Positions 15,001 to 27,000 of a stretch of 64,000 nucleotides of DNA are shown here, in pieces. The stretch lies in IMG/VR virus record IMGVR_UViG_2703718861_000013. One strand, given 5' to 3'. This stretch comes from a virus. Lineage: Duplodnaviria > Heunggongvirae > Uroviricota > Caudoviricetes. A program made the position numbers. Each line of letters begins with the position of its first letter. Position 1 is the first letter of the stretch.

Positions 15001-18000
15001 TCCGTGAAGCCGAACAGGATCGCCAGATGAACATACTGACGGGGGCTTCTGCACCGGCAAGACAGAAACTGAGTGTTGGCGGACAACTGGTGGCAGCGTA
15101 AGGAGGAAATATGGGGTACGGCTTACTGGATATTGCGAATCAGTCACGGCGTGAGGCATTACAGGGAATAAGTGACGCAGACCGACGACGTGAAGAAATT
15201 GAGGCTGCGAACAAACAGATGGCGGCGCAACAGAAAGCGCAGAACAAGCAGAATATCGGTACGGGCATTGGTACGGGGGCGGCTATTGGCGCATCCGTTG
15301 GTGGTCCTGTTGGTGCTGTTGCTGGAGCAGTAATTGGCGGCATTGCTGGTTCTTTGTTTTAAGGAGTGGTGAATGAGCGGATTTGCACAGGGGTTACTTG
15401 CCGGATTCAGCACGGTTGACCAGGCAATGACCCGTCGTAAGGAGCTTGGTCTGCGTGAAGCACAGCTTGCCCGGCAACAGAAAAATAACGAGCGCGATTT
15501 TGAGTTTGCGCAGTCTCAGTTTGAACATAATAAAAACGTTGATCAGCGGAACTTTGATTACAGAGCCAAAGTTGACGACCGTAATTATGCACTGAAGGAA
15601 AGGGAGTTTAACGCTAACCAGAATTACCGGAATGCGTCGCTGGGTATGGAGCAGCAGCGACTCCGGATGCAGAAATACAACCAGCGACGGCTTGAGTATA
15701 ACGATATGCTGGCGCGCGATCAGCCTGTGATGGCGGCGCTTGGAAAGGCTGTGGATGCTGGCGATCGGGATGCAGCAATGCGTCTTTACGGCCAGTTGTC
15801 AGAGGGTAATCCGCTGAGGCTGATGGCGAATGATGGCTATGTAGCGAAAGCGGGTCAGGCCGTGAACAACCTGCAAAAAATCTTTGATGACAAGCCAGAC
15901 AGGGCTATCGCTTCACTTAATACGCCGGAGAATCTTGATGTCCTTTCCGGGGTGTTTGGCCCGGAACTGCAACAGCGTATTGGCATGCCCGATTCAACCG
16001 GGAAAAAGACGATAAAAGAGGCCAGGATTGGCAGTATAGTACCGGCACAGCAGGAAGGGTACATACTTATCGGCCTTGATCTCACATACAGTGATGGCTC
16101 TACAGCACATAAACCTGTAACAGAATACGGCAGTGCGCACCCTGATGATCAAACCGTGCTGGCGATACCCGTTGATAAGGCTATCGCTCAGGTCAGGGAT
16201 CGCAGCAAATTTGCAGAGATATCGAAAAATTATGGTTATTTTATGCCGAAGCAGCAGGGACTTTCTCTGAAAGAGCTTCAGAAGGGGGCCAGCAACGTCG
16301 CGGCGGACGCGATCAAGAATGGCGGTAATGCACAGGCTGCGGTGGATGAATATTATGCTGCGACTGGTTCACAACCGCATCAACAGAAAATTCAGCAACA
16401 AAAACTTCAGCAACAGGTTATCAACTGGGCGGGAGATGATCCTGATAAGCTGTCATTTGCCAGAAATGTAGCGGCCCGTCAGCCTGAAATGCTGGAGCCT
16501 CAGAATCAGAAATTGCTGGAGAACGGGTATGCGAATTTTCTCCGTATTCAAAAGGCCAGGGGGGAACAGGCCAGAGATGAAAGTGCTTCATCTGCATCTC
16601 AGTTTATCCGTGGACTGAAACAGAATTACGCCCAGTAATTCACGATATTCCATTAATACCATTTCCTGATGCCCGGCCATTGTGCCGGGTTTTTTTATGG
16701 AGTCTGTATGGCCTATTCAGAGGAACAGCGTCCTGAGGCGCAACTCGGTAACCAGAATCGTAACAGCCTGAACATTCAGCAACCCGGCGAAACTGACAGC
16801 TATGAAGCATTTTTCTCTGATCCGAATCGCTGGAAGGATAACAGTACGTCGTTCAGCCTGGGCGATGTATTGCCAACAATGGGTAAAGGTTTCGCCCAGT
16901 CCGTCCGGGGAACAGGGGAAATGGCCCGTGGACTCGGTGATGCGATGATTCAGAGCCCGGTAAAAACAGGGGCGCGTATTTTAAATGAGTTCAGCCGTAT
17001 GGGGCTGCCGGGTGTCGCAACTGTGCAGGATATTTTTGCCGGTGGCAGCAGGGGGGCTGATGAGGTCATCGATACCCTGCCTGATGGCAAAAACGCGGTT
17101 ACTGATACTGTCGGTAAAGGTCTGAAGGCAACCGGTAAGGCTGTCAGTGATGGTGCTGAAGCCACTGATGAATGGCTGACCGGTAAGATGTCGCCGGGTG
17201 CAGTTCGTGCGCTGAATACGCCGATGACCGAAGGCTATGATGATTCTGCGGTCTGGGTGGCGAAGGGTGTAAACCTGATTGGTGCGCTTGTACCTGATAT
17301 GGTTGCTGGCGGTGTGGCTAAAAAGGTGGGTGATGTCACACTGCGAAAAATGCTGACCGCCGGGCTGGAGAAAAAATACATCGCGGCAGGGATGCAGCCG
17401 GAAAGAGCCACGGCACTGGCAGCAGAAGCTGTCGATAAAAAAATGCCGGATTTATTCCAGGCGGGCCTGATCACCCATTCCACAGCCAGTGCACAGGGGC
17501 AGAGTGCAATGGCGGCAGCAGATGCTGTTCTTAATGCGGATTACTCTGAGCTGGCGCAGTCACCGAAATTTCAGCAGACGTTTTTGTCCATTGACGCCGA
17601 CCCGCAGCACGCACAGCTTACTGATCGCCAGAAAATGGATCTGGCAAAAGAGCGTGTTGCCGATGAGGTGCGCGCGCAGCTGGCAACCGATCCTGAATTG
17701 CTGGCTGTGAATGCCATGGCGGCAAAACTGGGTGACGCACAACTGTTTAATCTGGTGACACGAGGCACAGCGAAGACCGTTAAAAGCGGCATTGTCAGAA
17801 ATGCCACGGAACAGGGGGCGATTAATGCGGCGCAGGGCGGCTATTCACGCTATCAGGAAAACACGGCATTGCGTGAGACCGCCGGAATGGATGTGTCACC
17901 GTGGGAGGGCGTGGCTGACGCAACGATCGAAGGTGCAGCCTTTGGTGCTGCGATGGGGGCTCCATCCGGTGCGGTTGCCGGATATCGTGGCAGACGTCAG

Positions 18001-24000: not shown

Positions 24001-27000
24001 GGACCTTTACTGGAGCGCCTTCGCTGGAAGAATCTGAATGTTCCGCAGAAAATCGCGCTTGCCGCTGTGGGAGCGGGTTATCTGCTTGGCTCGCTTAACC
24101 GCAGCGTGGCGGGTGAGGATGATGACGGGGTTAACTGGTATGACAAAGTACCGTCTCATGTGAAAGAGCGTAACCTCGTCATTATGAAATCGGTGTTCGG
24201 GGGCAAGGCCGGAGAGTACTGGAGTATTCTTCTGCCTTACGGGTACAACGTTTTCTTCCTGCTTGGTCACACAGCCGAAGGGGTGGCAGCGGGCGACCTG
24301 ACCGCTTCACGTGCTGCCGGTAATGTTGTTGGTGGTGTGCTTGGGGCATTCAGTCCTGTGGGCAGTGAAACGTCGGAAACACTGTCCGGGGCATTGCTGA
24401 AAAATGCAGCGCCGACCATTCTGCGTCCGTTTGCGAACCTTGCCATGAATGAAAACTTCATGGGGGCGCAGATTTACCAGGAGAACATGCCGTTTGGTAC
24501 ACCAAAACCTGACAGCCAGCTGGGAAGACGTTCAACGCCAGAAGCGTACAAGGCGTTTGCATCCTGGCTGAATGCGTTCTCAGGTGGCAGCCAGTACCGT
24601 CCCGGCGCGGTGGATATCACACCGGAATCGCTGAAATTCTGGATTGACTATATCTCCGGAGGGACAGGGCGCTTCATTTCCAAAACCACGGATGCGGCGG
24701 TGAAATCGCTGAATGGTATTGATATACCGGAACAGCAGGTGCCCTTCCTGGGGAAAATTTCGGGGGAGGTGATGCCGTATGCAGACCAGCAGAAGATGTA
24801 CGACCGGATGACAGAGATTGCGCAGTATCACGCAGAGCTGAAGAGTCTGACCGGTGCAGAAAGAACGGCGTTCATTGACGAGAACAACGGAAAATTGTCG
24901 ATGAACGGGCTTATGCAGGATACCCGGAAGAGACTGAAGGATTTGCGTAAACAGCGTGATGCCATTTATGCCGACAGTTCTCTCAGTCTGGCGCAGCAGG
25001 CGGCGATAGTGAAATCGGTAGAGCGGGATATGAAGGTTGCCGTGGATCGCTTTAACCGCGAGTACAACAAAAAAGTGGGAGTGGATTAACAGAAATGGCC
25101 CCGTACGGAAGTGCGGGGCTGATTAAGGAATAAACACACATTAACCTGTAATAACCGGAGCTATTAACATATAGTCAGAAAGAGTATTTCATGTGAGACA
25201 GAGAGCCGATTTATGTTTAATGAAGAAAAAGTTGCGCAAATGGCAGCGTATTTGCTGAAAAAGCATGGCGGATCTATGCGTTTCATTAAGCTGATGAAGC
25301 TGATGTATCTCTCTGACCGCAAAGCAATGGAGTCTTTAACCGGGAAGGGGAGAGGTTTGAATGCTCCCCCACAATTCCCCGGCATCAAATCTCCATGCAG
25401 GTGAACTATTTTACCCCCAGCGGCAAATCGCAAAAACAATCAGTGCGATCGAAATGGCAGCCACTACAATTGCAAATGCTTCAGGCTAGGTCATTGGCTT
25501 ACCTCCTTCGGCGGTTCTGGTAGCGGCATCCAGTGGGTTACTTCTTTGAGATGCAGGTCTTCGCCATCACCGTCATCCCAAGTGGGATTGCCATCATTAA
25601 ACCAGTCGCCATATACGCCGACCTGAGTGTTGGGGATGCTTGGTGGGTAGTTGTTTTTAAAGTCAGCTGCTAACACATAGTATTGTCGCTCTCCCATTTC
25701 TGGCATTCGATCACTACAGCTTATCCAACCATCCGGAGTTACCGGAACTGGCGGAACGGCTGTTTGCTCTCGAACGTCATTAGTCGCTATCGGTTCTGCT
25801 GCCAACTGACTGGCATATTTGTTAATGGTAACGATAAGCTCTTGCTCAGCCTCATCCAGACAATCACCGATACCTCGCCTGTCACCGTCAAAATCATCGA
25901 AATCGGCACGAATCTTGGCAACCTTCTGGATTGCGGACAACACCTCACTAGGAATTACCGGATAGTTGGTTGACGTTTCCGCGATTTCCCGAAAATTATT
26001 GGTTGACGAATTCTTGTTTTCCCGAAAGTTTCCGGACTGAAGCATGGCGGCGCGGCAGGCATTCCAGCCTCTTACCTCTGCAATAGCGGCAACCGCATCA
26101 ACCGCGTACATGCTAAGAGGATTAGGCATTGGTTTTTCTTCCGGTACTACTGGTGCTGGAGGGGCGGCGTAAATGCCCTCTATCACTAAATGTTTGCGCT
26201 CAAAATCATCTGGCTCTCGATGATATACGTAACTCCAATCACCAAGGTTATCATTGCGCCTGCAACGGAAACCTATCGGCTCGGCTTCCAGCGCTGCCAG
26301 AGCAATTCGTGCCAGTTCTTCCGCTTCTTCTGCTGGCAGTACAACGTTGCTACCAGGTCCGTATGTTTCGCGCCACTGCTTGATTGTCAGTAGTCGCTCT
26401 TTGGTAATAGTGATCATGCCGCGTTTCCTTCTTTCTTATTAACAATTACACCGTCATATATTTCATTAAGGTGCCCTCTCAACTCCATGCGCCTTAATGC
26501 AGATAACATGTAATCGCATTCAACCTGCTTATTCCCAATAAAAGGTTTATCTTCAGGGTTACCCCAACAGCAATTCCCCTTGGGCCATCCATGTACTTTC
26601 CGTACTCTTCCGTTAACAACGTGAAGTAATCCCCAGCCAGGTGGTAAATCCTCAATTGAAATAATTCCCGGCTCACTAATAAAGAATCGCCAGTCGCCCA
26701 TTCCAAGAGACGGATTTTTACGAAAACGCTTTTTTCTATCTGCCAACAAGTCAGCACGAGAACATTTCGCCTCTATCAGGCATGATGCTGAATTTCTGAA
26801 TCCCATAGCATCTGGCTGTTCTCCGGTACTGGTTACAGCTATAAAGCGGTCATGAAAACAAACCTTGAACCCGTTGCGCTTAAGGAACTTGTACGCAATC
26901 TGACAGAGTTCGCGGTGTGTTAACGCCATATCACTCTCCTTTGATGCGAATGCCAGCAAGCCAGTTTCTTATGCCGATATATTCAGCGTTCCGGAAACCG

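Follow-up and report, generated by a model that had tools for sequence, protein, structure and literature searches.

The last gene of the late/virion module in a short-tailed Stx-type prophage encodes a 2,793-residue protein, here called the giant protein. The prophage (Sepvirinae) is carried by a 64,000-nucleotide stretch of viral DNA (IMG/VR virus record IMGVR_UViG_2703718861_000013, Caudoviricetes), referred to below as the window. Taken as a whole, the evidence is probably best explained by a capsid-packaged polyvalent protein of the short-tailed Stx phages, delivered by the mechanism proposed below. Our analysis showed its layout. An N-terminal region is followed by a linker of ~600 residues, an LPD5-zincin unit, a HExxxH zincin, a PBECR domain and a C-terminal module of 915 residues. 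The protein has already been described and annotated, and the reading of it in a preliminary description of this DNA is right, not new. New here are the second zincin motif, a corrected assignment of the MuF-C domain, the recognition of the C-terminal module as a protein family, and the finding that the protein contains no Walker A motif. The mechanism of the giant protein is still largely inferred.

The giant gene is the orthologue of Sp5 ORF80/ECs1242 and of gp68 in Shigella phage 75/02 Stx (Sepvirinae). It shares 99.9% nucleotide identity with the latter, which is named ‘LPD5 domain-containing protein’ in RefSeq. The gene is present in 186 phage records at a level of at least 90% identity over at least 80% of its length. 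Nearly all of these phages are Stx-converting, and nucleotide identity of the gene across Stx phages is 97-99.9%. We also assign phi24B gp47 as an orthologue, by its size and identical domain list and not by alignment. It contains 2,811 residues, and the domains listed for it are LPD5/LPD1/LPD38/MuF-C (bioRxiv 10.64898/2026.04.10.717836).

Published experiments on these orthologues bear on the giant protein. Sp5 ORF80, 2,793 residues long, is among nine essential late genes (Mondal et al., 2016; PMC5155283). Its deletion mutant forms neither plaques nor lysogens, with a normal amount of DNase-resistant DNA and normal-looking heads (PMC5155283). An anti-tail-fibre antibody does not bind the mutant particles, which led the authors to count the gene among those required to form tails (PMC5155283). 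In phi24B, gp47 is abundant in purified-virion proteomics and is not visible in the cryo-EM map or negative-stain images. No ordered internal core was reported in that map, and the authors propose that gp47 is a capsid-internal ejection protein (bioRxiv 10.64898/2026.04.10.717836). These studies show that in close relatives the giant protein is essential, dispensable for head assembly and DNA packaging, and abundant in virions outside the ordered capsid and tail. The preliminary description had named absence from virions as one observation that would speak against a packaged protein; the phi24B proteomics found the opposite.

The domain content of the giant protein also supports this reading. 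Pfam searches with the whole protein identified LPD5 (E 1e-44), LPD1 (1e-23), MuF-C (2e-17) and LPD38 (3e-46), all well above the cut-offs. All four were defined in a survey of polyvalent proteins (Iyer et al., 2017; PMC5512222), and LPD38 is restricted to the phage-type members (PMC5512222). The giant protein combines several unrelated effector-type domains with a virion-gene setting, the features that characterize phage-type polyvalent proteins. Together with the presence of phi24B gp47 in virions, this supports the earlier proposal of a multidomain, packaged protein that resembles the large polyvalent proteins. Sequence searches against solved structures, with the whole protein or with a profile of aa 1040-1700, returned nothing meaningful. 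The gene and the regions of the protein are as follows.

16708..25089, plus strand: giant gene, 2,793 aa and a stop codon, translated from the ATG at 16708.
16969..18012, plus strand: N-terminal conserved region (aa ~88-435), with a hydrophobic stretch at aa 181-200 and a weak Gly-zipper match at aa ~406-433.
18025..19827, plus strand: variable linker (aa ~440-1040), charge-rich or P/G/Q-rich, with no Pfam family.
19858..20307, plus strand: LPD5 domain (aa 1051-1200), pLDDT ~85-95.
20308..21057, plus strand: zincin domain 1 (aa ~1201-1450), with the HEWFHSLD helix at aa 1284-1291 (nt 20557-20580).
aa 1361-1440, plus strand: LPD1 (Pfam), which covers the helix with the invariant E1375/R1379.
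21130..21702, plus strand: zincin-like domain 2 (aa ~1475-1665), with VLVAD-(15)-HEIIHH.
21955..22218, plus strand: MuF-C domain (PF18819; aa 1750-1837), segment search E 4e-19, 89/103 profile positions.
22342..25086, plus strand: C-terminal module (aa 1879-2793), 915 aa, which includes LPD38 at aa 2476-2681.

The first zincin is marked by the motif HEWFH, which the preliminary description had placed at 20557..20571 in the context GNGPGALAHEWFHSLD. We found it exactly there, at aa 1284-1288, between LPD5 and LPD1 in a region to which no Pfam family is assigned. The number of HExxH motifs expected from composition is 0.036, and shuffled sequences contain at least one in 3.5% of cases and at least two in 0.045%. 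We aligned 78 homologues from a search with aa 1195-1700 (30-48% identity) with aa 1040-1700 of the giant protein. Nine residues are invariant in the 79 aligned sequences: H1263, E1265, H1284, E1285, W1286, H1288, D1291, E1375 and R1379. The 12 commonest variants of the motif, which account for 75 of the 79 sequences, all conform to HEW[FWLM]H..D, and the conserved pattern overall is H..E / HEWxH..D / E...R. In the phage-type MPTase clade of Iyer et al., a histidine ends strand 2 and an aspartate lies three residues past HExxH (PMC5512222). The invariant pattern of the first zincin is that of this widespread clade.

In an AlphaFold model (pLDDT 81.2), an initial helix is followed by a sheet of three strands, the helix that bears HExxH, an insert and a further helix with E1375. 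The HExxH residues are located on the helix formed by residues 1282-1297, and the arrangement is the zincin core fold, in which an N-terminal helix and a three-stranded sheet precede two C-terminal helices. E1375, a candidate for the third zinc ligand (a glutamate in gluzincins), is invariant and in the model lies on the expected helix, the second C-terminal one. Fold neighbours of the HExxH domains include MtfA, PPEP, lethal factor and thermolysin-like enzymes, and also YbeY RNases. The NCBIfam profile NF041907 ‘CLCA_X’ matches aa 1182-1437 (window 20251-21018) over all 250 profile positions with an E-value of 6e-44, below its curated cut-off. Because both this profile and the model span the HExxH core and the Pfam LPD1 region, we suggest that the two form one domain, with LPD1 as the C-terminal part of the zincin. 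Invariance in homologues, the fold model, the fold neighbours and the CLCA_X match agree with the earlier zincin-like assignment. The conservation and the model identify HEWFH as a genuine conserved zincin site, for which zinc binding and peptide-bond hydrolysis are predicted.

LPD5, judged possibly enzymatic by Iyer et al. (PMC5512222), is a constant neighbour of this zincin. Homologues pair PF18799 with PF18796, and LPD5 and the zincin behind it move as a single unit. Many stand-alone proteins of ~480-600 residues consist of just LPD5 and the zincin/LPD1 domain. One of them is a 501-residue LPD5-zincin-LPD1 protein from Bacteroides salyersiae and gut metagenomes (L086-L088, 8001-9506). Its gene sits in a long co-directional array of small genes with RadC and DUF3310. 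This setting points, without being decisive, to a stretch of a mobile element with accessory or anti-defence functions.

The distribution of this unit bears on what the zincins might cleave. In a variant of the delivery reading, their targets once delivered are defence or regulatory proteins of the host, as for a toxin of the lethal-factor type or an antirestriction protease of the ArdC type, and they do not process the giant protein itself. Lethal factor and PPEP, both fold neighbours, cut specific host or surface proteins, and the ~480-600-residue proteins found in many elements contain no polyprotein to process. Iyer et al. listed this function as an alternative (PMC5512222). On the other side, a zincin motif is present in 118 of 122 long relatives of the C-terminal module, which fits a housekeeping or processing role as well as a variable effector role. 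We regard this variant as possible, if doubtful.

A further motif, HEIIH(H), went unnoticed in the first reading; it occupies aa 1551-1556 (nt 21358-21375). The model of this domain is a smaller sheet-plus-helices structure. Its pLDDT is ~72-95 in the sheet and motif helix and 60-75 beyond. Structural matches to zincins are short, covering 73-98 aligned residues, and a match to Peptidase_M76 is weak (E 0.11). HExx(x)H at this site is kept in a subset of the homologues. A HExxxH clade of MPTases was described by Iyer et al. (PMC5512222), and unrelated giant proteins share the consensus VAD-(13)-HExxxH-x-G directly 5' of the C-terminal module. The VLVAD-(15)-HEIIHH sequence of the zincin-like domain 2 fits this HExxxH-type consensus. 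Among relatives of the C-terminal module, HExx(x)H is found in 26 of 29 extensions and, as mentioned, in nearly all long representatives.

The MuF-C domain follows the second zincin. MuF-C belongs to the PBECR family, which has a predicted metal-independent endoRNase fold (PMC5512222). Mu gp30, a PBECR/MuF-C protein, has itself been reported inactive. The phi24B preprint refers to a ‘MuF-C metallopeptidase domain’, and this is the basis of its proposal that peptidoglycan is digested (bioRxiv 10.64898/2026.04.10.717836). We consider the label a mislabel, because the paper that defined MuF-C makes it a PBECR domain (PMC5512222). From its sequence, the MuF-C region of the giant protein is a predicted PBECR RNase-fold domain, not a metallopeptidase.

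This correction affects the preprint's proposal that the metallopeptidase digests peptidoglycan and thereby enables a conduit across the periplasm (bioRxiv 10.64898/2026.04.10.717836). A wall-degrading domain does occur within the family, as the N-terminal SLT lytic transglycosylase in gp14 of Ralstonia phage Cimandef shows. The peptidase was placed in a domain with an RNase fold (PMC5512222), and Pfam and NCBIfam searches found no lysozyme, SLT, transglycosylase, amidase or LAS peptidase in the giant protein. Leaving aside YbeY RNases, the zincins have as their closest fold neighbours endopeptidases and aminopeptidases that act on proteins or peptides. The sites of cell-wall peptidases are of the LAS or M23 type (HxxxD/HxH), not HExxH. 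In addition, the Bacteroides mobile-element array encodes the zincin unit as a protein of its own that is apparently cytoplasmic. We therefore judge digestion of peptidoglycan by these domains to be very unlikely.

The C-terminal third of the giant protein belongs to a very large family for which no structure has been solved. The module is predicted as one confident unit (pLDDT 85.9, pTM 0.82). Helices make up most of it, among them Gly/Ala-rich hydrophobic ones at aa 2445-2467 and ~2505-2555; it also has a small beta domain and many invariant Asn, Arg and Asp residues. A Foldseek search of the module against the PDB gave no match (best E 0.16), and no solved structure resembles it globally. 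PHROG 10089, labelled ‘DarB-like’, matches aa 2351-2681. In tblastn searches the module was found in phages of Vibrio (41% identity), Ralstonia, Burkholderia, Bacteroides and Bacillus. When 1.84 billion cluster representatives were searched with a profile of the module, 19,737 matched at E<=1e-3 and 7,883 at E<=1e-30, and 566 relatives were found in IMG/VR. A 3,002-residue protein of Methanosarcina virus MetMV (L004, 2584-11592) also ends with the module (E 3e-190, 28% identity). Since MetMV is an archaeal tailed virus, the module crosses the divide between bacterial and archaeal hosts.

The position of the module is constant. Across 46 diverse IMG/VR loci, 0-29 residues (68 in one) separate its end from the stop codon, and 273 to more than 3,300 residues lie upstream. 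In 130 distant representatives, with a median protein length of 2,776 residues, no more than 37 residues follow it. The module is thus C-terminal in every relative examined, behind differing upstream domains. These include InPase, DUF7178, ART-PolyVal, RadC, GNAT, DdrB-ParB, PBECR5, LPD3, helicase and GGDEF. Pfam recognised nothing 5' of the module in the giant protein of Vibrio phage D175.

We propose the following mechanism for the giant protein. It would be stored within the head. The C-terminal module, perhaps with the adjacent HExxxH zincin, may be the constant part that mediates entry into the head and/or passage through the portal-tail and envelope. Upon release of the tail needle, the protein would exit the capsid in an extended form, before or with the DNA. 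The zincins might then cut either the chain itself or proteins of the host, after which the freed LPD5-zincin unit and PBECR RNase could serve as early effectors of counter-defence or host takeover, directed at defence or gene expression in the host.

Several points weigh against this proposal. Pure cargo, such as the P22 ejection proteins, is not expected to give a tail defect of the kind seen in Sp5, where particles of the ORF80 deletion lack tail-fibre labelling and the gene is classed with tail formation. This phenotype (PMC5155283) argues for an additional structural role at the portal-tail junction; it is compatible with a docked internal protein but not explained by it. Processing of the giant protein is reported neither in PMC5155283 nor in the phi24B preprint, and the N4 virion RNA polymerase, which also has an MPTase, is packaged unprocessed (PMC5512222). 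The proposed role of the C-terminal module is read from its position and distribution, and no solved structure resembles it. Membrane signals in the protein are weak, with borderline Kyte-Doolittle peaks of 1.2-1.4 in a simple hydropathy scan. We also considered the N-terminal region as a universal constant end and rejected this, since only 8 of 130 distant relatives have it.

The Sp5 phenotype raises the alternative that the giant protein is mainly a tail morphogenesis or structural factor, for example a scaffold, a portal plug or an assembly ATPase, and not an injected effector carrier. The deletion yields DNA-filled heads that do not bind the anti-tail-fibre antibody, and the authors noted a match of ORF80 to the AAA+ ATPase COG1483 (PMC5155283). 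The Sp5 counterpart of the ORF79-like cassette partner is also needed for tail formation. We reject the ATPase assignment. No P-loop or AAA+ family was found in the giant protein with Pfam, even at E<=10 on segments, or with NCBIfam, and no Walker A motif, [AG]xxxxGK[ST], is present anywhere in it. Furthermore, gp47 is missing from the resolved phi24B tail, portal and capsid though it is abundant in virions. The zincins, the PBECR domain and LPD5, and the swapping of enzymatic domains in relatives, fit delivered effectors better than a scaffold. A mainly structural function is therefore unlikely. The two roles are not exclusive, and a portal-docked internal protein could stabilise tail attachment.

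Combining these observations, we tentatively suggest that the C-terminal module and the preceding HExxxH zincin might form an unrecognised, widespread delivery chassis with a new fold. It would anchor the protein at the portal during assembly and, on needle release, refold through its buried Gly/Ala-rich helices into an envelope channel for DNA and enzymes. Portal anchoring by the module would account for the tail defect seen on deletion of the gene in Sp5. This idea is speculative and, on balance, less likely than not. If it is true, one delivery chassis serves phages of Proteobacteria, Bacteroides and Bacillus as well as a Methanosarcina virus.

The N-terminal region of the giant protein, conserved only in a subfamily, shares 29% identity with Vibrio phages over aa 161-408. 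It is present in 17 of 51 close giant proteins and is near the N-terminus wherever it is shared. The long low-complexity linkers that had been noted earlier are confirmed in part. Entropy dips are located at aa 116-155, 397-461, 507-573 and 2522-2565, and the charge-rich and P/G/Q-rich windows lie in the linker at aa ~440-1040. Counted in 100-residue windows, there are 35 and 34 charged residues in aa 501-700 and 34 and 26 P/G/Q residues in aa 701-900. Compared to a Salmonella-type relative, aa 401-700 and 801-900 rank with the least conserved stretches and show 17-44% identity per 100-residue window, versus 75% in the C-terminal module. Several windows of the linker drop to 17-31%.

A similar distribution is found within the Stx phages. 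Conservation reaches 96-99.8% in the zincin cores and C-terminal module, and the linkers and the PBECR region are most variable. Among alleles that are otherwise 96-99% identical, mean identity drops to 78-81% at aa 801-900 (19108-19407) and aa 1701-1900 (21808-22407), with minima of 40-60% and indels. The variability of these two segments points to either recombination or selection for diversity in the surroundings of the PBECR domain. Beyond such allelic variation, the gene does not differ in substance from its counterparts in Sp5, 75/02 Stx and phi24B.

The gene model proposed in the preliminary description is borne out. The plus strand contains an uninterrupted open reading frame at 16669..25089. 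The ATG at 16708 is preceded by GGAG (16699-16702) and 5 nt, and is the RefSeq start of the orthologue in phage 75/02 Stx. The predicted length equals that published for Sp5 ORF80 (PMC5155283). Estimated from this length, the mass of the protein is ~300 kDa. Another in-frame ATG at 16669, 13 codons 5' of 16708, falls within a terminator hairpin.

This hairpin is part of the terminator that had been noticed just upstream of the giant gene, and it is real.

16671..16697, plus strand: intrinsic terminator that separates the ORF79-like gene from the giant gene; GCCCGGC-cattgt-GCCGGGT followed by T7.

The hairpin (16671-16690) has a 7-bp stem with 6 G-C pairs, and the terminator ends 10 nt 5' of the start codon. 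Comparable hairpins are found at 13096-13114 and 13953-13972 on the plus strand and at 13475-13452 and 13626-13603 on the minus strand. Strong terminator-like hairpins border the lom-like and small moron genes within the late operon. They fit independently expressed morons that are insulated from the late genes in the lysogen. By analogy with established lambdoid late-operon biology, Q-modified polymerase should read through the late-operon terminators.

The giant gene is located behind the portal, capsid, tail-fibre and internal-protein genes. Its placement at the end of the virion module was described correctly before, and this claim is not new. Gene order is the same as in phage 75/02 Stx, and positions 1-16700 of the window match the virion module of Stx phages. 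Five genes directly upstream each have a homologue in Vibrio phage D175, in the same order and 5' of its giant gene.

13500-13901, plus strand: upstream cassette gene 1, 133 aa.
13996-14652, plus strand: upstream cassette gene 2, 218 aa.
14649-15101, plus strand: upstream cassette gene 3, 150 aa.
15111-15362, plus strand: upstream cassette gene 4, 83 aa, with a Gly-zipper; annotated ‘bacteriocin’ elsewhere.
15373-16638, plus strand: upstream cassette gene 5, 421 aa; Sp5 ORF79 by position.

These five genes and the giant gene form a conserved six-gene cassette. Like ORF80, Sp5 ORF79 is essential (PMC5155283). The window itself is chromosomal. Its similarity to Stx-type prophage (POCJ13 / 75/02 Stx) ends near 30,020. 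A second, unrelated lambdoid prophage begins at ~46,890 (region 46890-64000) and shows 98% identity to phages HannyBb and PhiR42_1, with integrase, exonuclease, O-like and Q-like genes. The two prophages are separated by 17 kb (30020-46890).

The spread of Shiga toxin genes among E. coli and Shigella is driven by short-tailed Stx phages, which devote about one seventh of their genome to the giant gene. How such a giant chain is stored in a T=9 head was raised as a question by the phi24B authors (bioRxiv 10.64898/2026.04.10.717836). Our analysis contributes a corrected domain map, with two zincin sites, an RNase fold for MuF-C and no ATPase, and little new biology. It also places the C-terminal third in a huge family that lacks structural characterisation and whose members are always C-terminal, and gives precise targets for mutagenesis and truncation.

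The giant protein shares with the polyvalent proteins of Iyer et al. its many domains, its virion-module context, MPTase hub domains, PBECR/MuF-C and the LPDs. The Stx-phage protein is not named in the main text of that study (PMC5512222). There, LPD1 and LPD38 each figure as a small domain in its own right, with no function assigned. In our analysis, LPD1 appears to be part of the zincin and LPD38 is the core of the 915-residue module.

Functionally, the closest analogue of the giant protein is the N4 virion RNA polymerase gp50. This protein (3,500 aa) is also giant, belongs to a short-tailed phage, and is packaged in the head and injected (PMC5512222). Its N-terminal region functions in injection, the middle is catalytic, and a C-terminal MPTase region is required for encapsidation (PMC5512222). 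The giant protein differs in that it lacks an RNA polymerase domain; no RNA polymerase family was found in it with Pfam. We also compared the C-terminal module with the encapsidation region of gp50, and homology was rejected at the sequence level (hmmsearch full-sequence E 5; hhalign probability 0.3%).

A related giant protein is Cimandef gp14 (4,545 aa), which ends with the same C-terminal module (E 2e-165) and is encoded by the last gene of its virion module. Upstream, gp14 contains SLT, methylase and helicase domains; a methylase and a helicase are both absent from the giant protein of the Stx phages. Giant proteins such as Cimandef gp14 are labelled ‘DarB-like antirestriction’, in reference to phage P1 DarB, on account of those other domains and not of the shared module.

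Compared to the gluzincins anthrax lethal factor, Pro-Pro endopeptidases and MtfA, the first zincin shows only 12-14% sequence identity. It differs from them in the additional invariant H1263 and D1291 and in an insert of ~75 residues between the active-site helices.

The ejection proteins of T7 (gp14, gp15 and gp16) and P22 (gp7, gp16 and gp20) are internal proteins of short-tailed phages that exit by way of the tail and form an extended channel through the envelope. Their resemblance to the giant protein is one of functional analogy, with no homology detected. T7 and P22 each use three medium-sized proteins, whereas the Stx phages have one multi-enzyme chain with small cassette partners.

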